Positions 2,701 through 60,210 of a DNA stretch of 64,000 nucleotides are shown here, piece after piece. The stretch lies in NCBI RefSeq assembly GCF_030265065.1, contig NC_080410.1, positions 29,826,661 to 29,890,660 of the forward strand, given 5' to 3'. Below the pieces are notes generated by a model, which saw only the letters and a program-made list of their open reading frames with translations, was not told where the DNA came from and did not search any database. The position numbers and the translations under genes are program-made. Numbering within the stretch: the first letter of the stretch is position 1; every line of letters begins with the position of its first letter. The DNA is from Corythoichthys intestinalis. Taxonomy: Eukaryota.

Positions 2701-2760
2701 GACGTCAATGAAAGTTTAAGACTGGAAACTGGAAAGTGACTGACAGCTTGATTGTTTCAG

Positions 2761-2893
2761 TCTCGTAACAGCCTGCAGCAGGGGAACGTGGACGGGGCCC
2801 GCCGCTTGGGCCGCAATGCCATGGTGCTGTCGGTGGTAGCCATCTTGGGAGGCATCGCCGTCATCGCCGCCGCCATCACACTCAACCGCGAAC
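2761..2893 (+). CDS. exon encoding the second transmembrane helix of a CD225/dispanin-family (IFITM/PRRT2-like) membrane protein
   Basis: The acceptor ttgtttcag is followed by [44 protein letters not shown]. This aligns with the IFITM-type [33 protein letters not shown] segment. The gtaggt donor at ~2894 is uncertain (see noticed_but_rejected for the ORF run-on). Upstream exons were not found in the window. Confidence 0.4.
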
Positions 2894-3885
2894 GTAGGTC
2901 TTGCTCGCTCGCCGTGCCCTGTTGTCCTTTCTCACTCTTTTTCTTTCCTGTCAGTGATTTTAAAATCAGGATAAGACGCCACTTCCTGTTCCTGCACGAC
3001 CAGCATGTGCCCGACATTCTACCGTCGACGCGGAGACCGACGGGGAAACGTCTTCTGCATGACGAAAAAAGACGCCCAGTGAGCGTTTTTCGCATTTTGA
3101 ATGTTTACAAACTGAAGCCCGTTGGTGGCGTGACGTGTGCCGAAGTCACGCCGAGGTCTCGGACCGATCTCTTGTAACTCTGCATGTTTATAATCTTTGA
3201 CCGCTGAATGCCACGTGGCCTCATTTTACGCCTCGTAAAGAGTTCTTTTCATCATCGATTGATTCAGATTTTGACTGAACAGTGAAAAAATAATTTCATA
3301 AAATAGAAATATAAATGTAATCCAATACATAAAATGTGCTGATAAGTAAAATACATTAATTATTTGAGAAAAATAGAAGCAGTGCAAAAAAAAAAAAAGT
3401 GAATTGAAAAAAATGTTTATTTTCCACAGTAAAAGCAGAATTTTTGCCAATATCGTAGTTTGAAAGACAATTCGTCTCATTTTCCTGTCGACAGGTTCAG
3501 TTTATGATGATTGGTTCATTTAAAAAACATGTTTAAAAGAAATCGAATTAAGTTTAAATGTGATTTATTTCTAACATTAATTTACAAAAATAATGAAACA
3601 TTTTACAATGAAATTAAAATAAATCCAAATTGTTTTTTAAAATTAAAACAAACTTTTTGTCACTAAGTAACCTCAAACTGAATAAATGAACAGTAATATC
3701 ATTTTTAAATCATGAGATAAAAAGTCAAAATACAATAAAAGAATGTGATTTTGTCGGAAAAAAATCCAAATGCAATAAGCAAAAACCATCAACTTCATAA
3801 TGTATTGACGGTATCATGGGGAGCTGGGCCGATAAATAGGGGGCCTGCATTGTTGGCGAGGCCGTCAAAGCTGGCCAAAAAAACC

Positions 3886-4330
3886 CGTGCAGTTAGCATT
3901 TATTTTACGTAAATATGTCGAAGTACAATGCTAGTCTGTTAGTGAATGTAGCTAGCAGCTGCCTTATGTAAACAGAGCTTTTTCAGTGAAAATTCTTGTG
4001 AATAAATGCTTAAATCCCCGAATTCTTTACAGATATGGACGTAAAACAGTCTCGATTCTTAGTTAAAAGTAAAAAAAAAAAAAACGTGCAGTTAGTATTT
4101 ATTTTACGTAAACATGTCGAAGTACAATGCTAGTCAGTTAGTGAATGTAGCTAGCGACCACCTTCTGTAAACAGAGCTTTTCCGGTGAAAATTCTTGTAA
4201 ATAAATACTTAAATCCATGAATTCTTTATAGATATGGACGTAAAACAGTCTTGATTCTTGGTTAAAAGAAAAAAAACGTGTAGTTAGCATTTATTTTACA
4301 TAAATATTGCGAACTATGATGCCAATGCAG
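3886..4330. repeat. ~195-bp tandem repeat, ~2.3 copies
   Basis: The unit cgtgcagttagcatttattttacgtaaatatgtcgaagtacaatgctagt...ggacgtaaaacagtctcgattcttagttaaaag restarts at about 3886, 4083 and 4278. Confidence 0.65.
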
Positions 4331-5639
4331 CAGCGGCTAATTTCTCCCATGGATTTTTTTTCTCTTTTCAAAAAGCATGCATGGTACGAAAAATATAATT
4401 ATTACCTTGAGTCCTCGAACAAATCACTCCTGAAACAATCCTTCCTGTTTGTATCCGTCACAGTTTTTGTACTTTTTCAACAGAAATCCGGCGTTAGATT
4501 GCTGCGTGCGTGTTTGTGAATAACTCTTGATGTCGGCGGCCCCCTACTTGAATGCGAGGCACAGTGTATGACCGATCTGACCCGTCAATACCATTATGAA
4601 GTCTATGCAAAAACCTACAAATCGTTAATCAATTCATAAATGTTTGTATAAAGGCCAAATAAAACCGGAATAATCAGCATGCAATTTTACTAACAACAAT
4701 AATGTACGCTCAGCAAACGTTAAATGCAGCCTGTCCTTGCTTCGAATAGCATGAAATCCTTCTATGACATAGTTTACTTGACGTTGACGTTTTTATCGTC
4801 AAATCTTTTTTGTTGCTTCCATTTCTTTACCTCCATTTGATTCGGAAGAAAAATCAAATCGTGAAAGCTTGACTTACGTCGTTCGACCGACATGAACGTC
4901 GTTCGACCGACATGAGATTGTTTACACTGTCGCAAACGTGGCCTGAGAATTTTTTATTTACAAAAAGAACAAAAGTCCGCTTTGTGATTTGCTCCCATTT
5001 TTACCTCGTTGGCCACCGTGGACGGCGAGAGACGTCCAAATGAATCGGATGTCCATCGCCGTCCGTGGCGGCAGAGGAGTTCCTGTTCATTTGGGCAATT
5101 CAGTCGCCACGGCAATACTGTTTGCACTCCTTTTCTATTTTTCTATTCGGCTGCTTTACTATAATGGGATGCCTGTCCGCGCATGCGCACCTTTCTAAGA
5201 TTTCAAAATAAAGCTCACTTTGACATGTGACCGCCGATTCAATCTCATTGATTCTGATCGATGACTGCGAGAGCGTCGCCACGGCAACCGTCACGGCGGG
5301 ACCGAGAGGCAGACGGACGCAGAGGCGACATCCACTGGGCTTCGCGCCAATTTCATTGCACTCCAATCAATTATTCAAGACCTCAGCAGGCTGGAAGAAA
5401 CACCAATGGAAATGGAAGAGACGAGTCTGCAGGATGAAATGGAACAAAATGGAGGAGGAAGAACGGCCTCGAGTTGCACCAAAAACGAAGAGTGCGGCAT
5501 TATGAGCATTCATTATCAAGTCCGGTCTGGCTAATCGGGAGGACCGGGACAAAACCCGGTGGGGTGACCTTACGTTTTGTCCGGAAGAGCCCGTCTTGAT
5601 ATACATTTTGGATAAAGCTGTCCATTAAATGTGTTAATA

Positions 5640-7122: not shown

Positions 7123-7235
7123 GTTAAGAAAATGATCAACTACTACCTTTCTTCCCCACATTGCCTCCCACGTTAATTTTAATTGCTGAGAGAGGGAATG
7201 TAAGGCTTTAGCCAAATACAAAAAGGCTCCAAAGG

Positions 7236-7445
7236 CTGTCAAAATTATCTCTACTCATTATACGCTGCGTTTAGCTCTATATATTGGTAAAACGCCGCCT
7301 TTATAGATTGAACGCGACAATGCGTGAGTGGGTTGCGCAGCGCATGCGTTAATTATTTAACGTGATTAATTAAGAAAAAATCATTACCGCCGTTAACGCA
7401 ATAAATTTGATAGCCTACTTTAAGCCAAAACTACTCTGGATGAGT
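7236..7445 (-). repeat. truncated 5'-end fragment of the TAGGGCTGTCAAA hAT-MITE family
   Basis: It shares the cgttaacg...cacgttaaatatttaacgcaattaacgcatgcgctgc core with 21310-21530, 45005-45235 and the 5' ends of the MITEs at 24539, 30797, 59401 and 61736. Confidence 0.45.
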
Positions 7446-7526
7446 GTAAGACATTTTGTCTGTAACGTTATATACAATTAGAAAACGATTTAAATAAAAA
7501 AATATATATATATAAAAAAAAGGCAT

Positions 7527-7600
7527 GTCCGATTTTTTTGCCGATTCCGATACTTTGAAAATGACGTGATTGGGATGCCGATCGATCGGGACATCTTTAT
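7527..7600. repeat. ~75-bp palindromic mini-MITE (atgtcccgatcgatcgg core)
   Basis: Copies at 19918-19995 and 44838-44905 share gatgtcccgatcgatcgg..tttgaaaatgacgtgatcgggat..cggacatgcc. Confidence 0.45.
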
Positions 7601-12871: not shown

Positions 12872-13057
<186 letters not shown>

Positions 13058-13778
13058 CTAGAACAGTCTCATAATAAACATGCACACACATTTTTGGATT
13101 TATAAACACATCTGACACAAAGACAATTCACACACACATTGGATGAATGCGCATTTTGTGTCAGTTGTGGTTATAAATCCCAAAGTTTGTGGGCTTCTTG
13201 TCAGATGTGTGCAAGTTCATTCTACTTTATTTTTCATGTGCTTTAAAGACACCACATGATTGAACAGGCTGGCGTGAAGCTAGAATGGCAAGCTTGCATC
13301 TGATTGGCATCATATGATTGTTGCGACGTCTCATTGGTGAAATCAGTAGAGCTACCCCGGTAATACAGGAGGCACGTCTCAATTCTTGGTATCGCTAGCA
13401 AAAAAAAAATCTAATATGTTGAATAAAAGCGGAAAAATGTAACGACTCTTGTGTAGCCCAACGTAGCGGTGTTGTTGTTTTTTTCTCCACAGATCTACTC
13501 AAAAAGTAATGTTTAGTAAAACTAATCTTAGAAGTAATTTCGTCTTAAAAAGTTATTCAAATAAACATAACTGAGTACATGTAACATTACTACACACCTC
13601 TGTACATAAATATACATATGTACACACATATTAGGGGTGTGCCATATTAGGCACCCCACGATTCGATTACGATTCAGGGTGCTACGATTTGATTATTGAA
13701 CGATGATCACGATATTGGCGATGATCACGGTTGTTGCGATTATCGATGCATCATACACTACTAATTAATACAGTAGCC

Positions 13779-14939
13779 CAGTGCTTCTCGATTATTTTCT
13801 GTTACGCCCCCCCCCCCCAAGGAAGACGTAAATGTTTCGCGGCCCCCCCAAACTCTCTGCGGCCACTTTAAATAGTATCATTTGTCTATAAAATTACTAT
13901 TATAAATACGCATCTGCCTAACATTGTGTCCTTTTTTCTAATAAAGAAAAAAAGTAACATAGATCAACTTATAATAAAGTATAACTTTATTAACATTGTT
14001 TTGTTTGTAACAGAGAAGACTTGACGCGCATCAATTTGCCTGAATTTCAAAAGTCACATCCAAACTGTAAAAAATACACTCAAGGTACATTTTTGACCAT
14101 TTGATACAGAAAAATAAAATGTAATAAAATCAGTAAATAATAAATTAAAATTGATTCGAAACATTCACTCATGGGGACAATATGCCAAAAAATTTGACGG
14201 AAAAAACAAAACAATAAAAGAAAAAAAGTGTCCTTGGACAGAAGGACAGTTTCTATTTTTGCTGCTCACAGTATTACCTCCTTTGCAATGGTGTGGAGTT
14301 ATTTGGCAATGAGCATGCTAACAATGCTCACTGGTTTACTGATAGAACACTGACAAAGCAGGACGATTGTTGGCAATATTCGGCACGTTTTCGCTGAAAA
14401 ACAATCAAGCGGCTTATCAATGAGATTGGGGTCTAATGTCTTTAAGTGGCGTCTTGATTTGGCTTCTGGCTGTCCGCTATAATTATTTTTAGACACAGTA
14501 AACAGTGGTCTTTCCTCATCACACGCTGTATTAAAAGTCAAAGCTAAAAGGCAAACGGCTCGAAAAAAGCGCATTCTCGGCGGCCGAGGTAGAACCGTAG
14601 GTGAGGGCGGTCGTCGTGACGATCCCAAGCCGAAAATGGCACTTCTCGGGCGGCGACGTGAGAACCGGACAAGACATTGGGTCGCTGCGCGAGTGAGTCC
14701 GGTCGGAAAACTGCGGCGGCACACTGCTCTTCATATCTGTTTTGTCTGAGCTGCGTGCTCTTCCTTAGTTCAAAAATACTGCGCGCACTCTGAAAATTAG
14801 AGCGCCACTGCCACCCACTGAGTGGATGTGCAAGTACACTTTCTTCCAGTACAGCTAAAAAAAAAAGCATGTTCCCGAGGTCACATGCGCCCCCCCCCCC
14901 CCCGGCATCGCTCTGCGCCCCACTATTTGAGAAGTACTG
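13779..14939. mobile_element. hAT-like non-autonomous element (left arm of an inverted pair flanking mvp exons 11-13)
   Basis: TIR CAGTGCTTCTCGATTATT...AAATAGTGGGGCGCAGAGCGATGCC / ...CCCCACTATTTGAGAAGTACTG. 8-bp TSD CAGTAGCC at 13771-13778 and 14940-14947. Internal ORFs 14299-14870 have no homology. Confidence 0.75.
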
Positions 14940-16313
14940 CAGTAGCCAAACAAATTTATGTCCATTATTTATCTAAAATATCCTAATGATTCAACAGGAA
15001 CGATGGAAACATGCCCATACAACAAAAAGCTGCCCTCAATCTGCTTATTTATTTATTTATTTTTACTGGAAAGTGCAAAAAAAAAAATTTAAAAGGGAGT
15101 ACTTATTTCTCTCAACAATACAATAACATTTACACAGGTGGAATGAATCGCACATTTCCTGGAAACAAAGTGTCTTCAGAAATAAGACTTCTTCAGTTTT
15201 CTGTACTATTTCGCATGTTTGTAGTGTAACCGCTGTACTTAATCATGGTTTTACACGTTTTGCATATGAAATACACGTTAGCAAATTAGCTTAGTGCTTG
15301 GCGCTAACTATTCACATCGCAAAAACAACAATAAGGGCTAAACAGTACAAGAGGGTTCGTGTACTGACCGCTTATAGATGCACACGGGGCTTAGCAACAC
15401 ACTCAGGACATTTTTCAATGGAAACTCCTTAAAACTACTGCTGGACATTTAAAAGACAAAGAGCAACGAACTCTCTCTCTTCCACTCTTGCTCTAAAAAA
15501 TAACTAGCCTGCCTGTCTCATACACAAATTTATTTTCCAGTCTTTTAAAAAGGAGTAAATCTCTCAGTAACCGGCAGCATCCATCATAACGTGTGTGTGC
15601 TCCCATTAACGGTGCCCGGGCGGCAGACGTGTCTTGAAATTCGTTCCGCTACGAGCGGCTGCCATAAAGTTATGAGGGAAAAAAATCATCATTTTTTAAC
15701 CTTTATGAATCGTAATAGAATCGTCACGTGTCGAATCGCAATGCATGTAATTTTTTGGAACTCCTTTATAATACATTTATTGTAATGCCATATTGGTAAC
15801 AGGTTTTGGTAAGGATGTCCCGATCACATTTTGTTGGCATGCATATTCAAGTCACCACCACTTCGGGAATGTATTGAGAGGAGAGGGAAAAAAGCGCACT
15901 CAATTTGCAAAAAAGCTATTCCAACATAACTGCCACAGTGGTTTTTTCCGTCAACAATGATTTCGTCTGACGAGACGGCAACAATATGAAAACGCGACAT
16001 TGTTTCTGTCATATGCAGTGTTTGAGTCGTGTCACTGATGTGATGTGCTGCGCCTCTCCCTCACTCTCCTCACCGGAGTTTAGGATGTATCTTAAGCAGT
16101 TTGGAAACACTAAGATTTGTTTTCTTATCTTAGCAAGGGATTATGCAATGTTGCTTTAGCCTTTAAAGGTCTGTGCCGAGTGATCATCAGACGCTAAATG
16201 TAACTCCTAGTGTTAGCATAGCATTCAAGTTAGCATTAGCCTCAGAATGGCAAGCGTCCTCTTAAAACACTGGTCACTGTAAAGCAGAGCCATTTGGCTC
16301 TTCTAGTCAGTAA

Positions 16314-16727
16314 GTCTAGAGCAGTGGTTCTTAACCTGGGTTCGGTGAACAGTGGCTTTTTAGACCAAGTTTTGGACTGATTGGCTCCCAATTTACAGGC
16401 TTAATTCATTTAACTGTTAGTCCTCGATCTAATGAAAGGAGGAACTGGTTTGCTCAGTGGAAGGTTTACTTGCATTTGGTATGAGGGAATACAACAGACC
16501 AATGGACTGCGTGGTCTCAAATTTTGACCGGTTTATAAAACATGCGGTCAAAATGAGAAGAATTTTCAACGGGTATTTACTAAATTATTAGCTTGCTAGC
16601 TTAGATATCAGTTTTGAATTTGAAATTTTTTATCTAATTAAAAAAATATTTAATTCCGAAGGGTTCGGTGAATGGGAAACGTGGGGGTTTGGTACCTTTA
16701 AAAAGGTTAAGAACCACTGGTCTAGAG
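16314..16727. mobile_element. MITE with ~35-bp terminal inverted repeats
   Basis: TIR tctagagcagtggttcttaacctgggttcggtgaac at 16314-16350 pairs with ggttcggtgaatggg...ggttaagaaccactggtctaga at about 16650-16727. Confidence 0.5.
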
Positions 16728-17276
16728 GACATTAAGCGCTCGGACAACTTTATTTTTTTTGTATTATCATCATAAAGTTACCATTGTCCTTATAGACTCT
16801 ACAATAGGTGCTCATCTGTCTATGTTCATTCAAAACTGTTTGAAACCTTTATTTTTGGACTAAAACTTTAATTTTACAGACGAAAACATTTTGAGTAACT
16901 CAACTAAAACTAGACGAAACTTGTATGAGATTTCGTCGACTAATAGTAGACGAAAACATTTTGAAATGACTAAAGTATGACCAAGACCAATAAGTATTTT
17001 TGTCCGAAAGACGAGACAAAAATTAAGAGTGCTGCCAAACACTGTAAAGCCAAATAAAAGGGTTTTTAGTAGCGGGGGGTTTATTATTATTATTATTGAT
17101 TTATTTATTTTTAAATCACAAACCCCCAATCACTGTTATTTGCAGCCAATGAGTTAATACTTAAACTTTTAGATTTTAATTTTTTTTACCGGTTTCCTAT
17201 CCTCTGAAAATGATGTGATTGGGGCATTTTGAGATTATACACTACCCATCTATTTTTAGTCCTGTCGGCAACTATA

Positions 17277-17465
17277 CCTGCAACTCAGGCCCGGCGCGCG
17301 CCATCTCGGCGAGCGTGTCGCTTCCCAGGCTTTCAACGAGTTTGCGGAATCGCTCGTTCTCGATGTCTGCAAGCCGTTCCTGCTTGTCAACATCCAGTTG
17401 GTCCATCTGCTTCTTGTAGTTGAGCTCCTGCTCGCGAGCCTTAGATAGACGCTCCAGCTCGGCCT
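17277..17465 (-). CDS. mvp: major vault protein exon (CDS exon 13; C-terminal coiled-coil/cap-helix region)
   Basis: Acceptor gcgcttgcag, then EAELERLSKAREQELNYKKQMDQLDVDKQERLADIENERFRKLVESLGSDTLAEMARAGPELQ, donor gtatag. The human counterpart is [64 protein letters not shown]. Confidence 0.8.
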
Positions 17466-17527
17466 CCTGCAAGCGCACACCGCCGTCAAGCAAATGTCGC
17501 CGGGCGACTTTGGCAACTGGTGACGTA

Positions 17528-17655
17528 CCGCCTCGATGCGCTGCGCCTCTACTTTCAGCTTGGCCTCGTGGACGGCCGCCTCGCCCCGGATGCGGGCCGC
17601 CTCGGCGCGGGACTGAGCTTCGGCCTTGGCGGCACCCGTGCTCTCCACGGCGGCG
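17528..17655 (-). CDS. mvp: major vault protein exon (CDS exon 12)
   Basis: Acceptor ccttgcag, then (S)[42 protein letters not shown], donor gtacgt. It matches human [42 protein letters not shown]. A 62-nt intron separates it from exon 13. Confidence 0.8.
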
Positions 17656-17712
17656 CTGCAAGGCAAAGCGGATAGGTATCGGGATGGAAAGCGGCCACGG
17701 CATGAGGCTTAC

Positions 17713-17829
17713 CTGAGGGCCTCCAGCTCCAGAAGCTCCTTCCTGGCTCGCTCCGCCTCCGCCTGGTCGGTGATCTTCTGGCGCTCCAGTTTGCCACGAG
17801 CTTCCTGCTCTAGACGCTCCGCTTCGTGT
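17713..17829 (-). CDS. mvp: major vault protein exon (CDS exon 11)
   Basis: Acceptor tctatag, then (R)[38 protein letters not shown](S), donor gtaagc. It matches human [39 protein letters not shown]. Confidence 0.8.
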
Positions 17830-18974
17830 CTATACGTAAAAACACAAGGCGCTTAGATTACAGTTTCAGACAGTGTCAGGAACGATGAGACATCCAATCA
17901 TATGGCTCTTTTAGTCCTTTTGCTGTGAATTTCATTACTAGTTGACATCCAATCCATTTGAAATGGCAGATAATTAGTTAACCCTTTCATGCACCATTTT
18001 CTTTTAAAGTGCCTGTGACACGAAAAAGCATGTTTATTTCATAATACACGCGGTATTTTATGCTCCTGAATGATATGGACCGCTTGGATGTGTGTGGAGG
18101 CGATCGCTATATTTAGTTTTTTGAATCCCGCGCCAGGAAAATGAGTGACTTCCGGCTTCGGTCTTGCATTGAGGAGGAGGGCGCTGTGACGTGTACGGTA
18201 GAAGACGTCCTCTTCACTATACAGCGTACTGTTGTGTATGGGGACGAATGATTCAGCTGATTTTGCGGATTAATACGTTTATTTTTCGCATCACGCCAGC
18301 CAAACGGCTGCAGAAAAATCATTCTGTATGAGGGAGAGGCGTATGCTCCTTTTTGGAGTTTCAATAGGTTCCCATTCACCGTGCATATTTACTGTGGGAC
18401 TATTGGACTTACGAGGAAGTGAGTAAACATCTTGTTTTGTATTATGTCAAATACGAATACAGCGATTACAAAGTAAACACTACAAACTTCCTTTAAATGA
18501 AGGACTACTTACGTTTGATCATTGATAGGCATGTAAAAAGCTGTCTTAATGGTCATTAGCAGCAGCCCGTTAGCTGCACAACAACTCCAGCCACCCTCCT
18601 CCGGGGAACGAACTGTAAATTGCTCTCCGCTGGGCGGTTTGCCGATCCGCGACGACAATAGACAATCGGATCGTCATGTCAAATAATCCAGGATAGTTAT
18701 GTGTGATTTTCCGCTTTGAAGACTTTTCAAACATCACTCTGTTCGGGTTAGCATGTCGGCTAGCTGTCACGCCTTCTGGTTTGTTTACATTCTCCGAAGC
18801 CGGGGAAGGGAAATGACATATGTCCGATTTAGGTGTCATAAAATATAGTTCGGGAGGTGCGACAGTAAAGGTGAAGTCGACAGTTTTGACCATTATGGAG
18901 TAATTTTGCCATGTCGTCCTGAATAAATGCATTTTTATTATTTCATATTCCATTCAGCACAAGACTGTTATTTG

Positions 18975-19470
18975 TCATGACCATGCCATTTATTTAGCAA
19001 TTGGGGAAAATACTTGGATAAAAAGAATATCCTGTAAAAATATTGAAGTAAAGAGACAGAAACAATGACATTTTGCCGCTCTCTTCGTCGCGTTTTCCTC
19101 ATTGTGAATAGTTCCCCCTCGACGGGGTGACTGGTCCTTCTCAAGCCATTTATATAGCTATTGGGGAAAAATACTTGGATAAAAAGAATATCTTGTAAAA
19201 ATATTGAAGTAAAGAGACAGAAACAATGACATTTTGCTGCTCTCTTCGTCGCGTTTTCCTCGTTCTGAATAGTTCTCCCTCGACTGGCTGACTGGTCCTT
19301 CTCAAGCAATTTATATTGCTATTGGGGAAAAATACTTGGATAAAAAGAATATCCTGTAAAAATAATGGAGTAGAGAGACTGAAACAATGACATTTGGCGG
19401 CTTTCTTCGTCGCGTTTTCCTCGTTCTGAATAATTCCCCCTCAATGGGCTGAATAGTAAAATCGATGAGA
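18975..19470. repeat. ~165-bp tandem repeat, 3 copies
   Basis: The unit ccatttatatagctattggggaaaaatacttggataaaaagaatatc...cgcgttttcctcgttctgaatag restarts at about 18975, 19141 and 19306. Confidence 0.7.
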
Positions 19471-20103
19471 CCAGTCTACCGCTGACGTCATCCACCTGTT
19501 GGGGACGCTAAAGCCCTATAATGGTAGGCGTGGCTAACTGGCAGATTAAAAGGCTAATTTCTCGTCATCTGTGCTTTGCTAAATTGTTGTATATAGTCGA
19601 ATCGTCTCAAAATATGATTCTAATTCACATAATAATGCCATTTAAGACTTTTTTTCTCGTGTAGTATGCTCTTTAAGGCACTCATGTAACTCATTGGCTG
19701 CCATTGAGGGCAGTAGACGTCCAATCCATTTTGACTGGGAATTTTGTATTCGCATTTAATGCTCTTCTGAATGTGCAAATTAGCAAGCCTTGGTTTTACA
19801 TCTCCTAAAATTGATTCTGTAACACATTAAATACTCCTAATCCGATTACCCAATTATTCGAACTAACTAGTTGATTAATCGACTACTAAAATAATCGATA
19901 GCAGCAGCCCTAAATTGTAGAGATGTCCCGATCGATCGGCATCCCGATCACGTCATTTTCAAAGTATCGGAATCGGCAAAAATATATCGGACATGCCTTT
20001 TTAAATATATATACTGTATATTTTTTAATTAAATCATTTTCTAATTGTATTTAACCTTACAGACATAATGTGTTTCACTCTTCCAGAGTCTTTAAGCTTA
20101 AGG

Positions 20104-21314
20104 CAGTACTTCTCAAATAGTGGGGCGCGCCCCCCCAGGGGGGTGCAGAGTGATGCCGGGGGGGCGCATGTGACCTCGGGGAACATGCTTTTTTTGTTGT
20201 TTTTTTTCCGTACTGGAATAAAGTGTAGTTGCACATCCACTCAGTAGGTGGCAGTGGCGCTCTCATTTTCAGAGTGCGCGCAGTATTTTTGAACTAAGGA
20301 AGAGCACTCAGCACACACAGACAACAGATATGAAGAGCAGTGTGCCACCGCCGTTTTCGAAAGCAGTTTTCCGACCGGACTCACTCACGCAGCGACCCAC
20401 TGTCTTGTCCGGTTCTCACGTCGCCGCTCGAGAAGTGCCATTTTCAGCTTGGGATCGTCACGACGATCGCCCTCACCTACGGTTCTATCTCGGCCGCCGA
20501 GAATGTGCTTTTTTCGTGCCGTTTGCCTTTTAGCTTTGACTTTTAATACAGTGGGTGATGATGAAAGACCACTGTTTACTGTGTCTAAAAAATAATTATA
20601 GCGGACAGCCAGAAGCCAAATCAATTAAGACGCCACTTAAAGACATTAGACCCCAATCTCATTGATAATCCGCTTGATTGTTTTTCAGTGAAAACGTGCC
20701 AAATATTGCCAACAATCGTCCTGCTTTGTCAGTGTTATATCAGTAAACCAGTGAGCATTGTGAGCATGCTCATTGCAAAATAACTCCACACCATTGCAAA
20801 GGAGGTAAATAATGTGAGCAGCAAAAATTAAAACTGTCCTATCCAAGGACACTCTTTTTTTTTTTCTTTTATTCAGTTTTGTTTTTTCGGTCAAAATTTT
20901 TGGCATATTCTCATGAGTGAATGTTTCTAATAAATTTTAATTTGTTATTATTTACTGATTTTATTACATTTTATTTTTCTGTATCAAATGGTCAAAAATG
21001 TACCTTGAGTGTATTTTTTACAGTTTGGATGACTTTTTTTTTTTTTTTAATTCAGGCAAATTGATGCACGTCAAGTCTTCTCTGTTACAAACAAAACAAT
21101 GTTAATAAAGTTATACTTTATTATAAGTTGATCTATGTTACTTTTTTTCTTTATTAGAAAAAAAACGGACACAATGTTAGGCAGATGCGTATTTATAATA
21201 GTAATTTTATAGACAAATGATACTATTTACAGTGGCGGCAGAGAGTTTGGGGGGGGCGCGAAATATTTACGTCTTCCTTGGGGGGGCGTGACAGAAAATA
21301 ATTGAGAAGCACTG
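20104..21314. mobile_element. hAT-like non-autonomous element, second copy in inverted orientation (right arm of the pair flanking mvp exons 11-13)
   Basis: Same family as 13779-14939 in reverse complement (mirror ORF 20340-20546 vs 14531-14734). TIR CAGTACTTCTCAAATAGTGGGG...TTGAGAAGCACTG. Independent 8-bp TSD GCTTAAGG at 20096-20103 and 21315-21322. Confidence 0.75.
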
Positions 21315-21599
21315 GCTTAAGGTAAGGTTATCAAATTTATCGCATTAACGGCGAGAATTTTTACATTTATCACGTTACAATATTTAACGCAATTAACGCA
21401 TGCGCTGCACAACCCACTCACGCATTGTCGCGTTCAATCTATAATGGCGCCGTTTTACCCATACAGTATATAGAGCTAAAAGGCAGCGTAAAATGAGTGA
21501 ATTTTGGCAGCCTTTGGAGCCTTTTTTTAAATGGCAAAAGCAGACATGTCCAAAGTCCGGCCCGGGGGCCAAATGCGGCCCGTGGTCAAATTTCATCCG

Positions 21600-22476
21600 G
21601 CCCCCAGCCTCTGTCATAAAAAGCGGCACCTTAAGGCTCGACTGAAGTTTGCTGCTGATCACATGGACAAAGATAAGACCTTCTGGAGGAAAGTTCTGTG
21701 GTCAGACGAAACAAAAATCGAGCTGTTTGGCCACAATGCCCAGCAATATGTTTGGAGGAGAAAAGGTGAGCCCTTTAACCCCAAGTACACCATGCCTACC
21801 GTCAAGCACGGTGGTGATAATATTATGCTGTGGGGCAGTTTTGCTGCCAATTGAACTGGTGCTTTACAGAGTAAACGGGATAATGAAGGAGGATTACCTT
21901 CAAATTCATCAAGATAACCGGACGTCATCAGCCCGAAGATTGGGTCTTGGGCGCAGTTGGGTGTTCCAACAGGACAATGACCCCAAACACACATCAAAAG
22001 TGGTAATGGAATTACTAAATCAGGCTAGAATTAAGGTTTTCGAATGACCTTCCCAAAGTCCTGACTTAAACCCCATTGAGAACTTGTGGACAATGCTGAA
22101 GAAACAAGTCCATGTCAGAAAGCCATCAAATTTAACTGAACTGCACCAATTCTGTCAAGAGGAGTGGTTAAAGATTCAACCAGAAGCTTGTGGATGGCTA
22201 CCAAAAGCGCCTAATTGCAGTGAAAATGGCCAAGGCACATGTTACCAAATATTAGCGCTGCTGTATGTATATTTTTGACCCAACAGATTTGATCATTTTT
22301 TTCTGTTCACCCATAATAAAGTCATAAAAGAACCAAACTTCATGAATGTTTTTTGTGACAAAGAAGTATCTGTTCCAATCAGAGAAAAATCAGAGTTGTA
22401 GAAATAACTGGAAACTCAAGAGAGCCATGACATTATGTTCTTCACAAGTGTATGTAAACTTTTGACCACAACTGTA
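21600..22476 (+). mobile_element. Sleeping-Beauty-like Tc1 element, 5'-truncated, with transposase pseudogene
   Basis: ORFs 21531-21854, 21649-22047 and 22084-22278 read LWSDETKIELFGHNAQQYVWRRKGE...TVKHGGDNIMLWG...QQDNDPKHTSK...[11 protein letters not shown]...HVTKY* across frameshifts. The 3' TIR gtatgtaaacttttgaccacaactgta ends at ~22476. Confidence 0.7.
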
Positions 22477-24538: not shown

Positions 24539-25697
24539 TAGGGCTGTCAAAATTATCGCGTTAACGGGCGTTAATTTTTTAATTTATCACGTTAAAATAT
24601 TTGACGCAATTAACGCACTAGGCCTGCTCAGACAGATTTAAATGTCAGAACAGTGAAAGGCCAACTTGTTAATTGTGTGTTATGGAGTTTTTCCACCCTC
24701 TGCTGGCGCTTGGGTGTGACTTGCATATGTTATCTGGCGTAATGTCGCCCTCTGCTGGCGATTCAGTGCAGCTGATTATTTGGGTTTCGGCGCGCTTTTC
24801 TGACGTGATTATATGTCGACGCGAACTCACACTAATAGACAGTGCTATTCAGACCAGCTAACGTCCGCATCCAGTATTCAGTGGCAGTTCTCATAGCCCC
24901 ATCACACTGTTTGTGTCTAATACATGCATCGCTTGTGAGTTATATTCCTCCTTTGTTTATATTCATGAGCATTAGATAGTTATTGATGATGTGTATTTGA
25001 ATTTGTTCACATATATGGTGAAATGCAGTTACATTGTTAGATGCTTGTGAGCTAATTGGCTAGTGCTACTTCTCAAATGGACACGTGTGTGTACATTTTA
25101 TGTTATTTTGTGATTTATGCAAGTTATTGACACATTGCTTTGGTATTTTCAGTTTTACAAAAATACAAGAAACGTGCTCCTGTCAAAAAGAGGTGACTTC
25201 AGTAAAGCCCATGCAACTTTGCCACACCGTCTGATTTCTTTTTGGAACTTATGTTCGCTATCTGTCAATTTGTGTACGCACACACATTGAGGACAGAATA
25301 GGGCTACTAGTTTATTTTTTGATTGAAAATTTTACAAATTTTATTAAAACGAAAACATTAAGAGGTGTTTTAATATAACATTTCTATAACTTGTACTAAT
25401 ATTCATCTTTTAAGAACTACAAGTCTTTCTATCCATGGATCACTTTAACAGAATGTTAATAATGTTAATGCCATCTTGTTGATTTATTGTTATAATAAAC
25501 AAATACAGTCCTTATGTACCGTATGTTGAATGTATATATCCATCTTGTCTTATCTTTCCATTCCAACAATAATTTACAGAAAAATATGGCATATTTTATA
25601 GATGGTTTGAATTGCGATTAATTGCGATTAATTACGATTAATTAATTTCTAAGCTGTAATTAACTCGATTAAAAATTTTAATCGTTTCACAGCCCTA
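24539..25697 (+). mobile_element. hAT-superfamily non-autonomous element (TAGGGCTGTCAAA family)
   Basis: TIR TAGGGCTGTCAAAATTATCGCGTTAACG...CGATTAAAAATTTTAATCGTTTCACAGCCCTA. Perfect 8-bp TSD GAATAAAT at 24531-24538 and 25698-25705. Confidence 0.8.
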
Positions 25698-28669: not shown

Positions 28670-28881
28670 CTGGCAGCGGCCTCCTGGGAGTTGGTGGTAA
28701 TCTCGATGGCGAGCTGGACGCTCTTCTGCAGGGCGTCGCGTGTGCGCTGGTCCACGGGTTCCACCGACTGGATGTCCACGCTGCTGATGATCAGCCGATT
28801 CTGATGGAAGCGAAGACTGGGCCGCACCGCCAGCTTCTCGTCAAAGCCGAACACGGCCGAGCAGATGATGCGGTTGGAGTT
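28670..28881 (-). CDS. mvp: major vault protein exon (CDS exon 10)
   Basis: Acceptor ccgcgggcag, then [70 protein letters not shown](R), donor gttgac. It matches human NSARIIRTAVFGFE...[42 protein letters not shown]. Confidence 0.85.
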
Positions 28882-29159: not shown

Positions 29160-30440
29160 GGGGTGTCCAAACTTTTTGCAAAGGGGGCCAGATTTGGTGT
29201 GGTAAAAATGTGGGGGATCGGCCTTGGCTGATGTCTAGTGCTGCAACAATTAATCGATTAACTCGAGTATTCGATTAGAAAAAGATTCAAATTAAATTTT
29301 GCTGCTTCGAGTATTTTTTTCATTTAAGTGGCGTTGTAATGGTATATTTTGAAAGTGTTTGCATTTAGTTTTATTGATTTGGGTGGTTACACTGCCTTCT
29401 AGTCTGCCTCATTTCACATGGCTGAATCCATGTGCTCCCTGTTAAGACCAACATAAGCTACGTTTTTGTTACAGCGAAGTTTTTTTTTTTTAATCCATTC
29501 GTTATTTAGTTTATAGGTATTTTTTAGCCTATTTTTGTGGGAATATGTGTTTGAAATATTTGTTAAGAGCATTGTAAAAAAAGTAAGCATATTGTAGTAT
29601 TTCAACTCGCGGACTTTTGCTATGTAAGTTAGCCAATTGTTCTTTTGTTGTTCAAATATCCTCAATAATTCATTTTTTATACCGTTTGAGGCTCAGCTCA
29701 GGTAATTTAATTTTTCATGTTCCTTATCCAATTACTCGATTATTCGAACTAATGGTTGATCGATTAATCGACTACTAAAATAATAGATAGCTACAGCCCT
29801 ACTGACGTCCTTTACATAGAATATATTTAAGCAAATTTTAGCTAGCCATTCTGTGTGTCACATTTGCTTTATTATTTTTTTTAATAATTTCAACAATCTC
29901 ACCACCAGACTGTCGTTCTCTTTCGACTTTCGGGCACTTGCGAAATACTGCTGCTGTGAAATTAAACTAACTTAAATTTCCTTATATTTCTCGCTGCGCA
30001 TCTTCCCTGTAATCTTGTCGTACATGTCAGCGTGTCTTGTTTGGTAATATCGCCTCACAGTGAACTCTTTAAAAACAGCGACTGTCTCTTTGCAAATGAG
30101 GCAGACAGTTGTTGCGTATTTTAGTGAAGAAATAGTCCAATTTCCACCTATCCTTGAAGCATCGGCCAACGCAGTCAACTTTCTCTTTTGTTGATTATCG
30201 CTATTTTAGAAAATTTCAAGTAAAGGGTCACACGGGGTAATGTTGCTTAGAGTGCTGCTGCCTTTTAGAGGGTAAATGAGAAGCAGCATTTAGTGTGTAA
30301 GCTACTTCATATGCTGGTAGTAGTACTGCTGACCAATTTATTAAGTCTGTGTGCGGGCCAGACGTTATTGATTTTATGACAGACGCTAGGGGCCGGATGA
30401 AATTTGACCACGGGCCGTATTTGGCCCCTGGGCCAGCCTT
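29160..30440 (-). mobile_element. hAT-Charlie-like element fragment with N-terminal zinc-finger ORF
   Basis: ORF 29972-30178 reads ISSLKYATTVCLICKETVAVFKEFTVRRYYQTRH, resembling the CVICxxxLxNxxMKPSKLKRHLxTKH finger of Charlie-type hAT transposases. An inverted copy lies at 55530-56230. The ends carry the ggccggatgaaatttgaccacgggccg repeat. Confidence 0.5.
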
Positions 30441-30796
30441 TGGACGTAACTGTTCAAGGGTGATTGTATTTTAAATAATCCCCGTTTAGTCTTATATTCG
30501 GACAGTTTGCCCAGACTCTCGCCCATGTAAGCAATCTTGAAATATTGCTCATTTGGAGCACAGAATACCCCCCCTCCCACCCATTAAAAAAAAAAAAAAA
30601 AACCTGGCAAGCTCGCCTCTACCCTAAAAGCCGCGTTCAAGCTGCTCACACTAATGCACAGCTCCATCGCTAACGTAGCGCCCAGTCTCTCTCGCTCTTT
30701 GCCGATGAAACTGCTGCGTGAATTCCGATTTGGGGTACTTGACAGTTCAGACCGCAGCCACATTCTGGAAAAATGTGGCCCAGATCAGGTTTTAAC

Positions 30797-31395
30797 TAGG
30801 GCTGTCAAAATTGTCGCGTTAACGGGCTATAATTAATTTTTTAAATTAATCAAGTTAAAATATTTGACGCATTTAACGCACATGCCCCGCTCAAACAGAT
30901 TAAAATGACAGCAAAGTGTCATTTCCACTTGTTACTTGTGTTTTGCCGCCCTCTGCTGGCGCTTGGGTACGACTGATTTTATGGGTTTCAGCACCATAAT
31001 TATTATTGACATCAACAATGGCGAGCTACTAGTTTATTTTTTGATTGGAAATTTTACAAACTTTATTAAAAAGAAAACTAAGGGGTTTTAATATAAATTT
31101 TCTATAACCTGTACTAACATTTATCTTTTAAGAACTACAAGTCTTTTCATCCGTGGATTCCTTTAATAGAAAAAATGTTAATGCAATCTTGTGGATTTAT
31201 TGTTACAATAAACAAATACAGTACTTATGTACGGTATGTTGAATGTATACATCAGTTGTGTCTTATCTTTCCATTCCAACAATAATTTACAGAAAAACAT
31301 GGCATATTTTATAGATGGTTTGAATTGCAATTAATTACGATTAATTAATTTTTAAGCTGTGATTAACTCGATTAAACATTTTAATCGTTTGAATT
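30797..31395 (+). mobile_element. hAT-MITE (TAGGGCTGTCAAA family) with degenerate 3' end
   Basis: The 5' end tagggctgtcaaaattgtcgcgttaacgggc is intact. The 3' end cgattaaacattttaatcgtttgaattttaagg is mutated. Confidence 0.6.
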
Positions 31396-33059: not shown

Positions 33060-33446
33060 CTGGCAAAGAGAAAGGGGGAGGGGCCGAAGGAGGGCGGAGA
33101 CCAGGGTTAGCGAGGCGATGGGTGGGGAAGGGGGGCGGGGATGCGGGAAAAAGAGGGAGGACTGATAAGGAGGGCGGTTGGCGGGAAGGCCATGTGACAT
33201 GCGGGAAAGGCGTGAAGGGGGAGGACACCTCAGACAGGATTTCACCCTCATTTCTATCCCACAAAGTGATTTATTTATTTATTTTTTTTAAAAAACAAAT
33301 TAAACCTCAAAAATTAAGTTCCCCAAAATACCTCCGAAGCTCGTTTACGCTTTTGTGGCAAAACAGCCGAAACGGCGTCCTATGAACACAACGCAGCTAC
33401 TTTTAGCACGGCTACTGCAAGCGTGGTCCCCGGGGGTGGAGCATAC

Positions 33447-44160: not shown

Positions 44161-46419
44161 GTCCACCGGAACCTTAACCTCAACCGGGCGACTTCCTCCT
44201 GTCTTGGACATCTCGCTGACACCGACAACGACAAACTATGGAAAAATCTGAAGCGGGCACAAAAATTGGGCAATTTTTAAACTCAAGCTCCGTGTCTTTT
44301 CACCCTTCTAATGTGAATTTGACAAGTTAAACCACAGCCTGTCTGAACCTTACCCAAAGTGGGAAAAGTCATCAACAAGCGATAGTATTTTCGATGGGAG
44401 GGGGTGTGTGAGGAAAACAAAGCTCACTATTAAGTTAATACCAAATAACAGTAAAAAGCATTGCAACCTATAAGGCTACCTCAAACGCTTATTTTGAAGG
44501 TCAAATAATCAATTACCGGTATTTACATAAATCACATTGTTAGCAAAAGTGGATGTTTTCAAATATCTTATGTGGATTTATTACAAGGATCATCTGTTTA
44601 CAGGGATTACAGAAATCAGAATATTTACTTATTCCGTGTTTTCCCCCCATTTTCAAATTAAAAAAAAAAAAAAAAAAAAAGCACAAGTGTGCTACAGCGC
44701 ACTATAGGCCGAAAGCTAGACGAAGAAAGCCTTCAAATTAATCCTGGGCAATAAAACTAAAGATAATTAATGTCATAATTTTTGTCAACATTAATAGTAA
44801 AAACATTCGATTAAAGTGGAAAGATTTAAACTAATTAATAGAGATGTCCCGATCGATCGGGATTTTAAAAGTATCGGAATCGGCAAAAAAATATCGGCCA
44901 TGCCTTTTTTGAATATATATACATTTTTTAATTAAATCGTTTTCTAATTGTATTTAACGTTACAGACATAATATGTTACACTCATCCAGAGTCTTTAGAT
45001 TAGGTTTAAAGTAGGGTTATTAAATTCATCCCGATAACGGCGGTAATTAATTTTTAAAAAATGTATCACGTTAAATATTTAACGCAATTAATGCATGCGT
45101 TGCACGACCCACTCACGCATTGTCGCACTCAATCTGTAATGGCGCCATTTTACCCATTTAAAGAGATAAAAGGCAGCATGAAATGAGTAGAGTGAATTTT
45201 GGCAGCCTTTAGAGCCTCTTTTAATAGGCTAAAGCCTTACAATCCCCCTCCCTACAATTAGAGATATCTTGGGAAGCAATGTGTGGAAGCAAGGTAGCAA
45301 TTGATCTTATTCTTAACACCTTATATTAATTCCCAACGCAGAGAAGATATATCAATTGGTAGCACTACGCACAGTAATGGTTCCACTTCCCATCATGCAT
45401 TTGGGTTGAATGGCTGCAGTCTCATTTACTGAAAGCTCAACAAATACACTAGATGGCAATATTTAGTCACAATATACAAAGTCACAAGTCTTTCTATCCG
45501 TGGCTCCCTCTCACAGAAAGAATGTTAATAATCTAAATGCCATCTTGTGGATTTATTGTCATAATAAACAAATACTGTACTTACGTACTGTATGTTGAAT
45601 GTATATATTCGTCCGAGTTTCATTCATTTTTTTAATGCATTGCCAAAATGTATATGATCGGGAAAAATTATCGGGAATGATTGGAATTGAATCTGGAGCA
45701 AAAAAAAAGCAATCGGATCGGCAAATATCGGGATCGGCAGATACTCAAACTAAAACGATCGGGATCGGATCGGGAGCAAAAAAACATGATCAGAACAACC
45801 CTACTAATTACACCACCCAAACACTGGACAAAAAGGGGGCGCTGATGGCGCGTGAAGCTCTGAGCGGGTATTCAGTACAGGAGGGAATGAATGATAATTT
45901 AAAATGATTAGCAACAATAACTCAGTGCACGATATGCCAAACAAAAATGACAAAAACAAGTGTTATTAGAAAGACTGACTGTTTCTTTGCAGCACTTGTA
46001 TTGACCAGCATGTCCGAGACCATGTCTAATGCTGTTTTTTTTGCACTGAGCAAAATTGTATGCCACCTGGTATGATGCCTTCACTGCTAGCTAGTTTACT
46101 TTACTGATGAAGCACTCACAAAGCGGGACTATTGTTAGCAATATTTGTCACGTTTTCTTGAGTCCATGGATTGAGAGGTGAGGATTAGGCCTGATTTATG
46201 CTTCTGCATACCGTTGACAGCAGAGCGATGGCATAGAACGAGTTTCTCTGCAATTCCCCACCATGCCACTAGAGGGGTGTGGCTTTGTCTTTGTACGGTT
46301 TTGGGGGACTTGTCGAATTCCTTTACTTTTCCTCCGGTCATTGACAGCAATAGCACTAGAGCTTGAACATGTTTTTGAGGTGCACATCGGGCTACAGCGT
46401 CGGGTCGTAAATCGGGTCT

Positions 46420-55529: not shown

Positions 55530-56230
55530 CTAGACATGTCCAAAGCCCGGCCCGGGGGCCAAATGCGGCCCGTGGACAAATTTCATCCGGCCCCCAGCCT
55601 CTGTCATAAAATCAATAATGTCTGGCCCGCACACAGACTTAATAAATTAGTCAGCAGTACTGCTACCAGCATATGAAGTAACCTACACACAAAATACTGC
55701 TCCTCATTTACCCAGTAAAAGGCAGCAGCACTCTCACATTACCCCGTGTGACCCAATTTTCTAAAATGGTGACAATCAACAAAAAAAAAAGAAAGTTGAC
55801 TGCAACTGCTGACGCTTCAAGGATAGTTGGAAATTGGACTATTTCTTCACTGAAATACGCAACAACTGTGTCTGCCTCATTTGCAAAGAGACAGTCGCTG
55901 TTTTTAAAGAGTTCAATGACACGCTGACATGTACGACAAGATTACACGGAAGATACGTAGCGAGAAATTGAAGCAACTTGAAACTAGTTTAATTTTACAG
56001 CAGCAGCATTTCGCAAGAGCCCGAGAGTCGAAAGAGAACGCCACAAAGGCTAGTTGCAAGATTGTTGAAATTATTAATTAAAAAAAATATTATAGCAAAT
56101 GCACACAGAATGGCTTGCTAAAATTTGCCTAAATATATTGTTCTACATAAAGGACGTCAGCTAAGGTCGGCCCCCCACATTTTTACCACACCAAATCTGG
56201 CCCCCTTTGCAAAAAGTTTGGACACCCCTG
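55530..56230 (+). mobile_element. hAT-Charlie-like fragment, inverted copy of 29830-30440
   Basis: gacatgtccaaagcccggcccgggggccaaatgcggcccgtggacaaatttcatccggcc...caactgtgtctgcctcatttgcaaagagacagtcgctgtttttaaagagttc matches 30440-29830 in reverse complement. Confidence 0.5.
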
Positions 56231-59400: not shown

Positions 59401-60210
59401 TAGGGCTGTCAAAATTATCGCGTTAACGCGCGGTAATTAATTTTTAAAATTAATCACGGTAAAATATTTGACGCAATTAACGCACGTCCCGCTCAGAAAG
59501 TATTTTGCCTTTTGGTAAGTTTTACAGCAAGGCTTTTTGCGCTGTCCAACAGCAAACTCTTGTGGTCGCTTTGCGACATGGTTTATTATTTTCTTCTTTT
59601 CTTCATTATGGCTGCACGACGTCTCGGGCTGATAATGTTGTGCTTATATGATCCTTGGACAAGATTTGTCCGTAAGTATGGTTGTTGTAAAGAATGTACA
59701 TATTATGTTAGTAAGCGAAATGTTCTATTTTTCTATGAGACGCTTTTTGTTTATGTTTAGTGAACCTGTATCGCGTGCTAAGCTAACGTTGTTGCTAATG
59801 CAATGCTGTGTACTTTTTTGTTGTTGTTTCACTACGGTCTAAAGAGGACAGTGGTTTGAAGCCATTTTATTAATAAATCAGATGAAAAAGGAAGAAGTCT
59901 GATTATTAAGGCGTCGTTCACTAGCTGTCTAGCTTTGGAAAAAGTAGACGCTTCGGAGTGAGGACAGCATAGACAGATTTAAATGACAGTAGAGTGAAAT
60001 GCCCACTACAGTCCTTATGTACCGTATGTTGAATGTATATATCCATCTTGTGTCTTATCTTTCCATTCCAACAATTTATTTTACAGAATATATATATAAT
60101 TTACAGAAAAATATGGCATATTTTATAGATGGTTTGAATTGCGATTAATTACAATTAATTTTTAAGCTGTAATTAACTCGATTAAAAATTTTAATCGTTT
60201 GACAGCCCTA
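59401..60210 (+). mobile_element. hAT-MITE (TAGGGCTGTCAAA family), copy C
   Basis: TIR TAGGGCTGTCAAAATTATCGCGTTAACGCGCGG...CGTTTGACAGCCCTA. 8-bp TSD ATATATAT within TA-repeat context. Interior 59520-59880 is near-identical to 61840-62220 of copy D. Confidence 0.8.

Follow-up and report, generated by a model that had tools for sequence, protein, structure and literature searches.

The 64,000-nucleotide stretch of Corythoichthys intestinalis DNA that was analyzed (the window) contains mvp, the gene for major vault protein, on the minus strand. We located its exons with an approximate human-MVP-like probe and checked the assembled protein by independent comparison with PDB and NCBI. The resulting model has 14 exons with canonical boundaries and encodes 880 amino acids, matches NCBI isoform X2 at 100% identity, and aligns over its full length with the solved rat/human MVP (PDB). 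A homologue search with a 106-amino-acid C-terminal fragment returned short fragments only, and confirmed the identity of the protein as MVP. Between the two NCBI isoforms, X1 and X2, the sole difference is a micro-exon located in intron 6 (33379-33332, extra in X1). Exon numbers used here refer to the coding exons of X2; they shift by +1 in X1, and by a further +1 if a non-coding first exon exists.

Coding exon 10 (28670-28881, minus strand) lies upstream of a 10,840-nt intron 10, and the last coding exon, exon 14 (12872-12997, minus strand; stop codon TGA at 12874-12872), lies downstream of a 4,280-nt intron 13. Between them are exons 11 (17713-17829, 117 nt, with AG/GT boundaries), 12 (17529-17655, 127 nt) and 13 (17278-17466, 189 nt), all on the minus strand, with canonical splice sites and separated by tiny introns of 57 and 62 nt (introns 11 and 12, respectively). 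Exons 11-13 (17829-17278) total 433 nt, encode amino acids 695-839 (the cap-helix coiled coil, aligning to approximately residues 674-819 of rat/human MVP), and are retained in both annotated isoforms.

Each of the two long introns harbors a copy of the same non-autonomous, hAT-like element. Copy A (13779-14939, plus strand, 1161 nt) is located in intron 13 and constitutes the 3' arm in the pre-mRNA, while copy B (20104-21314, minus strand, 1211 nt) is inverted relative to copy A, lies in intron 10, and constitutes the 5' arm. The segment between the two arms measures 5.2 kb. Both arms are ~2.3 kb away from splice sites, and the polymerase leaves the 3' arm with 781 nt still to go before the exon-14 acceptor. 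An earlier reading made from the sequence alone had placed the arms in the introns bracketing three coiled-coil exons. Its placement and its numbering (exons 11-13 for the X2 coding exons) hold, although position 17277, given there as the exon boundary, already belongs to the donor GT as its first base, and the exon ends at 17278.

Two independent insertions of one element

Global alignment of copy A with the reverse complement of copy B yielded 1088 matches, 62 mismatches and 72 gap columns (16 indel events), which corresponds to 94.6% identity over aligned columns, or 89% with gaps counted. The sequence-only reading, which had called the copies near-identical in reverse complement, had set 80% as its lower limit, and the value found is far above this. 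An inverted-repeat search resolved the arms into 13 collinear inverted segments with 83-100% complementarity. Homology between the copies ends precisely at the terminal inverted repeats (TIRs). The 13-bp TIR CAGTRCTTCTCRA is present at the ends of both copies, with two mismatches in copy A (CAGTGCTTCTCGA / CAGTACTTCTCAA) and one in copy B. It occurs five times in the window versus 0.29 times expected by chance, and all five occurrences are at element ends.

Copy A is flanked on its left (13771-13778) and right (14940-14947) by the 8-mer CAGTAGCC, and copy B on either side (20096-20103 and 21315-21322) by GCTTAAGG (plus strand). These target site duplications (TSDs) are perfect and 8 bp long and differ in sequence between the copies, as do the flanks, in keeping with the earlier proposal of separate insertions. 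Copy B also splits an older repeat of ~410 bp, the left (19918-20103) and right (21323-21541) halves of which were delimited by empty-site alignment to paralogues. When the empty site was rebuilt, it aligned unbroken over the junction with two uninterrupted paralogues at 7205-7599 (83%) and 44831-45235 (80%), both of which hold the copy B target 8-mer only once; the transposition of copy B is therefore directly shown. A paralogous empty site for copy A was not found in the window searched, and the insertion of this copy is supported by its TSD and by the lack of the element in orthologous introns.

The sequence-only reading had suggested that related species be checked for the insertions, and we compared mvp orthologues from five syngnathids (Phycodurus, Stigmatopora, Syngnathoides, Festucalex and Vanacampus). 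The element was absent from introns 10 and 13 in 5/5 of these, where intron 10 is 85-353 nt and intron 13 is 139-891 nt long. Given these short introns without the element, both insertions are lineage-specific. The coding span of mvp is 31 kb in C. intestinalis versus 5-17 kb in the relatives, with intron 10 measuring 10.8 kb versus <0.4 kb and intron 13 measuring 4.3 kb versus <1 kb. Taken together, the different TSDs and flanks, the empty-site paralogues of copy B, and the absence from five relatives confirm that copies A and B are the same element, inserted independently on two occasions.

A third copy of the family, bringing the number in the 64-kb window to three, is located at 48222-48611 (plus strand). 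It is older (75-80% identical), and has lost its 5' part while keeping the 3' portion, with the terminus CGGTACTTCTCAA and the 3' flanking 8-mer ATTTAAAG. A Pfam search with the longest open reading frames of the element gave no meaningful match (a Cas5d match at E = 0.16 is noise), and no open reading frames conserved between copies were found. Because its reading frames are also full of stops (17 stop codons on frame translation), the element is non-coding and non-autonomous. Rfam and tRNA scans of the 12.5-22.5 kb region identified no RNA family and no tRNA; a mir-4803 match outside the element reached 30.7 bits, where the gathering score is 90, and this sub-threshold match is attributed to chance.

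Class and origin of the element

hAT elements move by means of a transposase with BED, DDE (RNase-H-like) and hATC-dimerization parts, either their own or supplied by another element, and their termini have the form YARNG. The 5' end of the pipefish element (CAGTG) fits this form, whereas the 3' end, read inward (CAGTA), departs from it at position 5. Ac-type hAT elements have the target consensus nTnnnnAn, which neither TSD matches on either strand, and an Ac-type target was rejected on these grounds. Elements of the hAT superfamily are defined by an 8-bp TSD, short TIRs (5-27 bp) and an overall length of <4 kb (PMC3517528), and the two full copies here have perfect 8-bp direct repeats, a 13-bp TIR, and lengths well below 4 kb. 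The target consensus of Buster elements is 5'-nnnTAnnn-3' (PMC3517528), and TA occupies positions 4-5 in three out of three flanking 8-mers (CAGTAGCC for copy A, CCTTAAGC for copy B and ATTTAAAG for the third copy). The probability of a central TA at all three is ~3e-4 based on the window TA frequency of 0.068, albeit from three sites only. Buster elements have also been recently active in Actinopterygii (PMC12637253). Judged by TSD and TIR features alone, the element would belong to the hAT superfamily, and is most likely of the Buster type.

The closest likeness is to non-autonomous Buster elements, such as the Mar MITE family of Drosophila, which share the central-TA 8-bp TSD (nnnTAnnn; PMC3517528). 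The Mar TIR, CAG(G/A)GGTAGGC, and that of the pipefish element are both short and imperfect, and start with CAG. Like other non-autonomous Buster elements, Mar has no coding capacity and is often intronic, as is the element described here. At 1.16-1.21 kb, however, the pipefish element is larger than a typical MITE (MITEs usually span a few hundred bp and occur at high copy number), although it is non-coding as MITEs are, and it is likened to Buster by its termini and TSD rather than by family sequence. Given this size, and a copy count taken from the window alone, "non-autonomous hAT" is a safer label than MITE.

Two other accounts of the arms' origin were considered. Membership of a different superfamily with roughly 8-bp duplications (P, Mutator-like, Merlin or Zisupton) is decidedly improbable. 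The element encodes no transposase, such that its class rests on its termini, the 3' terminus departs from YARNG, and the Ac-type target is unmatched, all of which would suit such an assignment, but the exact 8-bp TSD, the short TIR beginning with CAG, the length under 4 kb, and the central TA at 3/3 sites fit hAT/Buster (PMC3517528), a group recently active in ray-finned fishes (PMC12637253). It is scarcely credible that the arms instead arose by segmental duplication in inverted orientation, or that they are an artefact of the assembly, for example from a mis-joined haplotype. While fold-back duplication or misassembly can yield inverted, near-identical kilobase segments a few kilobases apart, this origin is contradicted by homology that stops exactly at the TIRs, by a perfect direct duplication belonging to each copy, by the older repeat that copy B splits and that is continuous in its paralogues, by the 62 substitutions and 16 indels separating the copies, and by the existence of a third, older copy elsewhere in the window.

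Predicted pairing of the arms and its possible consequences

In the minus-strand pre-mRNA, the two arms are predicted to form a duplex of -1909.8 kcal/mol, a net gain of -1264 kcal/mol over their self-folds, whereas a shuffled-arm control showed no pairing gain. The predicted duplex comprises 1102 intermolecular bp, with a longest helix of 115 bp and 11 uninterrupted helices of at least 30 bp. The ~1.2-kb pre-mRNA stem envisaged earlier would thus take the form of an imperfect duplex of ~1,100 bp. No other inverted repeats of at least 60 nt involving either arm were found within the gene. The only other partner of the arms is the third copy at 48.2 kb, which may not be transcribed; if it is, its predicted pairing with copy B is weak (net -217 versus -1264 kcal/mol). 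The locus therefore has the reverse complementarity between flanking introns that is expected of circRNA loci, and the pairing of the arms is stronger than any intra-intronic pairing.

Inverted Alu pairs (IRAlus) are known to promote back-splicing and ADAR editing, and effects of competition, ADAR and helicases on such pairs have been described (PMC11263572). IRAlus are likewise reverse-complementary transposable elements (TEs) of one family in introns flanking internal exons, and in both cases there is no stronger partner within either intron and a long intramolecular duplex is predicted. They differ in that the mvp pair derives from a DNA transposon and Alu is a SINE, that the mvp arms are ~4 times the length of Alu and ~2.3 kb from splice sites, and that mvp has a single pair, known from the genome sequence alone, where IRAlus have many alternative partners. 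By this likeness, the A-to-I editing, back-splicing and exon skipping proposed in the sequence-only reading are plausible for the mvp arm pair, as a generic expectation drawn from work on inverted Alus (PMC11263572, PMC8516420). Back-splicing usually acts on young TE pairs that are specific to one lineage and lie in the flanking introns, and these pairs have been read as by-products (Gruhl et al., eLife 2021, PMC8516420). The TE dimers in those circRNA parental genes are similarly lineage-specific, little-degraded copies within a "transposon sink" gene, although that work concerns mammals and starts from observed circRNAs, whereas the teleost mvp locus offers the genomic precondition alone.

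It is very probable that mvp received two independent, lineage-specific hAT insertions, and that the resulting pair is a selectively neutral by-product of TE-driven intron expansion. A single non-autonomous ~1.2-kb hAT-like element inserted twice by cut-and-paste, in opposite orientations, into introns 10 and 13, both times after the Corythoichthys lineage split from the five compared syngnathids, and within a broader enlargement of mvp driven by TEs. With both arms on one nascent transcript, the duplex would be deaminated by ADAR, and may occasionally bring the exon-13 donor near the exon-11 acceptor (exon 13 end GCCGGGCCTGAGTTGCAG, exon 11 start ACACGAAGCGGAGCGTCT), giving a low-abundance 433-nt circular RNA. 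Its counterpart would be a linear product joining exon 10 to exon 14 (exon 10 end CAGGAGGCCGCTGCCAG, exon 14 start GTGAAACTGTTACAGTCC), with AGG-TGA at the putative skip junction, encoding a 695-amino-acid MVP from which the cap-helix domain is missing. Normal linear splicing would nonetheless be expected to dominate, because introns 11 and 12 are tiny, because intron 10 could be removed while the polymerase covers the ~4 kb from the exon-11 acceptor to the end of the 3' arm, and because the arms are distant from the splice sites. Given this expectation, the pair is most likely a selectively neutral side effect and not a means of regulation. The retention of exons 11-13 in both annotated isoforms is mild evidence against appreciable skipping. 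In minigene studies, a long, near-perfect pair that faces no competitor within either intron acts as a strong circularization signal, and the circular product could exceed the low abundance assumed here.

In its strong form, the suggestion of the sequence-only reading would give the pair a regulatory function, with the stem looping out exons 11-13 to produce biologically meaningful amounts of a circular mvp RNA and/or the truncated 695-amino-acid MVP. We consider this highly unlikely. Such a role would be served by a very stable predicted 1102-bp duplex with no rival intra-intronic partner, by canonical splice sites on exons 11-13, and by a 3' arm that is fully transcribed while the exon-14 acceptor is still 781 nt away. 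Transcripts that terminate in the last exon escape nonsense-mediated decay (NMD), and the skipped product would do so because its stop (AGG-TGA) lies in the last exon. However, the absence of both insertions from 5/5 syngnathids (introns of 85-891 nt) indicates that the gene functions where the pair is lacking, the annotated isoforms retain the three exons, and the arms lie ~2.3 kb off the splice sites. The divergence between the copies (5.4%, and 16 indels besides) also matches what unconstrained decay would produce, and young TE pairs of this kind are read as by-products (PMC8516420).

Meaning of the mvp pair

An inverted TE pair around exons is an ordinary, well-understood, textbook arrangement, often encountered in TE-rich genomes, and the mvp pair leaves current understanding unchallenged and opens no new question. 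It is very improbable that, in Corythoichthys, mvp has gained a lineage-specific output through the hAT pair, whether an abundant 433-nt circle or a stable, NMD-escaping mRNA for the 695-amino-acid MVP. If it had, a protein without the cap-helix and cap-ring could interfere with vault assembly, and the locus would be a recent, datable case in which a pair of DNA transposons has rewired a conserved structural gene of a teleost. The pair provides a clean, fully resolved example of recent DNA-transposon activity inflating a compact teleost gene, with a precondition for back-splicing and RNA editing arising as a side effect. Because it is missing from related species, the pair could also be used as a natural test case in a vertebrate outside the mammals.

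Two opposed insertions of one element in the mvp gene

Minus-strand ORFs match the major vault protein, and exons were located with a human-MVP-like probe sequence before splice sites were picked computationally. The assembled model has 14 coding exons, all 14 with AG/GT boundaries, and an 880-aa product, residues 17-873 of which align with 4-852 of solved rat MVP (~1256 bits). It is validated by its match to NCBI "major vault protein isoform X2" of Corythoichthys intestinalis (100% identity over 100% of length). Isoform X1 differs solely by an alternative micro-exon in intron 6 (33332-33379, minus strand, 48 nt, 16 aa, AG/GT boundaries). Exons 11 (17829-17713, 117 nt), 12 (17655-17529, 127 nt), and 13 (17466-17278, 189 nt), all on the minus strand, are separated by introns of 57 and 62 nt and, with 433 nt in all, code for the cap-helix coiled coil (aa 695-839). 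Copy B of the element lies in intron 10 (10,840 nt) and copy A in intron 13 (4,280 nt), and thus the model bears out the placement, in the sequence-only reading, of the two copies on either side of the three coiled-coil exons.

Copy A (13779-14939) and copy B (20104-21314, opposite strand) both have sharp ends when the sequence is read. A repeat finder joined 13769-14896 to 20158-21324 by 13 collinear inverted segments (83-100% complementarity), and global alignment of A against reverse-complemented B gave 1088 matches, 62 mismatches, and 16 indel events (72 gap columns). The proposed near-identity of the inverted pair holds, at 94.6% over aligned columns (89% with gaps counted; K2P distance 0.056). 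Most indels fall in poly-C and poly-A tracts; poly-C/poly-G tracts near both element ends (13809-13819, 13845-13851, and 14890-14904 in A; 20150-20165, 21257-21264, and 21281-21287 in B) vary in length from copy to copy and explain several of the 16 events. Both copies start 5' with CAGTGCTTCTC(G/A)A and read CAGTACTTCTCAA inward from the far end, giving a 13-bp terminal inverted repeat (TIR) with one mismatch in B and two in A. Five matches to the CAGTRCTTCTCRA motif (≤1 mismatch) lie in the 64 kb, each at an element end, versus 0.29 expected from shuffles. A third, older copy (48222-48611, 75-80% identity) lacks the 5' part and retains the 3' terminus.

The target-site duplications (TSDs) claimed earlier were confirmed, with CAGTAGCC at both flanks of copy A and GCTTAAGG at both flanks of copy B. 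A stretch of 78 nt adjoining copy B was found again at 44920-44997. The pre-insertion site, rebuilt as left flank, single TSD, and right flank of copy B, aligned unbroken across the junction with two paralogous copies of an older repeat of ~410 bp (7205-7599, minus strand, 83% identical to the rebuilt site; 44831-45235, plus strand, 80%). In a three-way alignment, these paralogues carry a single GCTTAAAG or GTTTAAAG where copy B shows GCTTAAGG twice; hence, copy B is a true transposition event that duplicated 8 bp of target. No paralogous empty site for copy A was found within the 64-kb window. The older family is interspersed, its start containing GATGTCCCGATCGATCGG, with one member split by copy B (19918-20103 and 21323-21541) and fragments at 24539-24617, 59401-59484, and 61736-61819. 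Origin of the pair by inverted segmental duplication, or as an assembly artefact, is excluded by the different TSDs, the unrelated flanks, and the nesting of B in the older repeat, features which also uphold the earlier claim of independent insertions.

The element had no protein-family match, its longest ORF (141 aa in copy A) is disrupted in copy B, its whole-frame translation contains 17 stops, and Rfam and tRNA scans found no family or tRNA inside it. These results make it a non-autonomous DNA transposon. Published definitions describe hAT elements as <4 kb long, with TIRs of 5-27 bp and 8-bp TSDs, and give the Buster family a target consensus of nnnTAnnn (PMC3517528); in ray-finned fishes, Buster elements show recent activity (PMC12637253). 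The element falls within the hAT definition on TSD, TIR, and length, and TA occupies positions 4-5 in all three flanking 8-mers (CAGTAGCC, CCTTAAGC, and ATTTAAAG; chance P ~3e-4 at a TA frequency of 0.068). The Ac-type target consensus fits neither TSD. Membership in hAT/Buster is putative and structural only.

Lineage specificity, age, and neighbourhood

Orthologous mvp loci were compared in Phycodurus eques, Stigmatopora argus, Syngnathoides biaculeatus, Festucalex cinctus, and Vanacampus margaritifer. Introns 10 and 13 are short in every one of them (~85-353 nt and ~139-891 nt, respectively), and a search for the element, a check suggested by the sequence-only reading, found it absent at 5/5 loci, with short low-complexity matches and nothing more. 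Hence, both insertions and the accompanying intron expansion are specific to the Corythoichthys lineage. The coding span of mvp is 31.3 kb in the window (12872-44211) against ~5.0 kb (Stigmatopora argus), 8.1 kb (Syngnathoides), 11.0 kb (Vanacampus), 16.4 kb (Festucalex), and 17.1 kb (Phycodurus), which points to strong growth of the introns through TEs in Corythoichthys. Dating of the A-B distance by T = k/2r at 1e-8 per site per year, a rate applied to Actinopterygii (PMC12637253), gave ~2.8 My, or ~11 My at a four-fold slower rate, both rough because A and B need not share an identical source.

Other repeats are also present. Between the two insertions, intron 10 contains a 161-nt unit repeated three times in tandem (19003-19485), the other two copies sharing 94% and 78% identity with the first. 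A Tc1/mariner transposase remnant (21531-22278, plus strand) lies ~200 nt from copy B; the pieces of its ORF, when joined, match the catalytic domain of Sleeping Beauty SB100X (E = 1e-58), its broken frame marks a dead copy, and 80 nt of it are found again at 55532-55611 and, in inverted orientation, at 30372-30452. Exon 10 is flanked, in introns 10 (24575-25687) and 9 (30838-31390), by copies of a separate ~0.5-1.1-kb repeat that share one orientation and 80-94% identity. A mir-4803 Rfam match in intron 13 outside the element (13092-13184, plus strand) was sub-threshold (30.7 bits vs gathering score 90, E = 0.013) and was taken as chance. Synteny around mvp is kept with Stigmatopora (50402-51293; 52494-52870 and 62714-63334; 2736-5469). 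A conserved non-coding block lies ~0.3 kb upstream of the coding start in Stigmatopora and ~6.2 kb in the window, with a Cupin_8-domain gene beyond it and a CD225-domain gene downstream of mvp.

Pairing potential and expected RNA consequences

Co-folding of the arms as minus-strand transcripts (5' arm, copy B; 3' arm, copy A) gave a predicted energy of -1909.8 kcal/mol, a net -1264 kcal/mol over the two self-folds. The predicted duplex has 1102 intermolecular base pairs in 54 helices (11 of ≥30 bp, longest 115 bp), in line with the ~1.2-kb stem proposed around exons 11-13, and a shuffled 3' arm gave no folding gain. The inter-arm loop is 5164 nt; the exon-11 acceptor is 2274 nt downstream of the 5' arm end, the exon-13 donor 2338 nt upstream of the 3' arm start, and the exon-14 acceptor 781 nt downstream of the 3' arm end. 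No other inverted repeats ≥60 nt involving either arm were found within mvp. The third copy pairs weakly with the intron-10 arm in prediction (net -217 kcal/mol, 289 bp); it sits between the ATG exon and the conserved upstream block at 50.4-51.3 kb, and so may or may not be transcribed. Further short inverted pairs (75-81 nt, 83-89%), 21541-21621/30372-30452 (introns 10 and 9, bracketing exon 10) and 29408-29651/39428-39646 (introns 9 and 3, bracketing exons 4-9), could act as weaker pairing partners in other parts of mvp.

When the introns on either side of a set of exons hold reverse-complementary TE copies, the pair promotes back-splicing, in competition with pairs formed inside one intron; ADAR binds and edits such pairs, DHX9 destabilises them, and NF90 stabilises them (PMC11263572). 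The mammalian pairs that act in this way are mostly young, species-specific TEs, and the circRNAs they give rise to are seen as splicing by-products in transposon-prone genes (PMC8516420). For mvp, by analogy, the arms would be expected to be hyper-edited whenever both are present on one RNA, and exons 11-13 to yield a circular RNA of 433 nt as a minor product. In its counterpart exon 10-14 mRNA, the junction ...AG|GTGA would read AGG-TGA, giving a 695-aa protein with its stop in the last exon. Under standard NMD rules, such a transcript should escape decay. Linear splicing would be expected to dominate, since the ~4 kb from the exon-11 acceptor to the completed 3' arm gives time for intron 10 removal, introns 11 and 12 are of minimal size, kilobases separate the arms from the splice sites, and no annotated isoform (NCBI X1 and X2) lacks exons 11-13.

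The inverted pair is real and its structure was read correctly, both points being well documented, and the suggestions of editing, back-splicing, and skipping seem reasonable but generic. A possible further consequence is ectopic recombination between the inverted copies, which may invert the 5.2-kb segment with exons 11-13. That the pair is lineage-specific and decaying argues for its neutrality, and it represents a fresh instance of a well-known arrangement.
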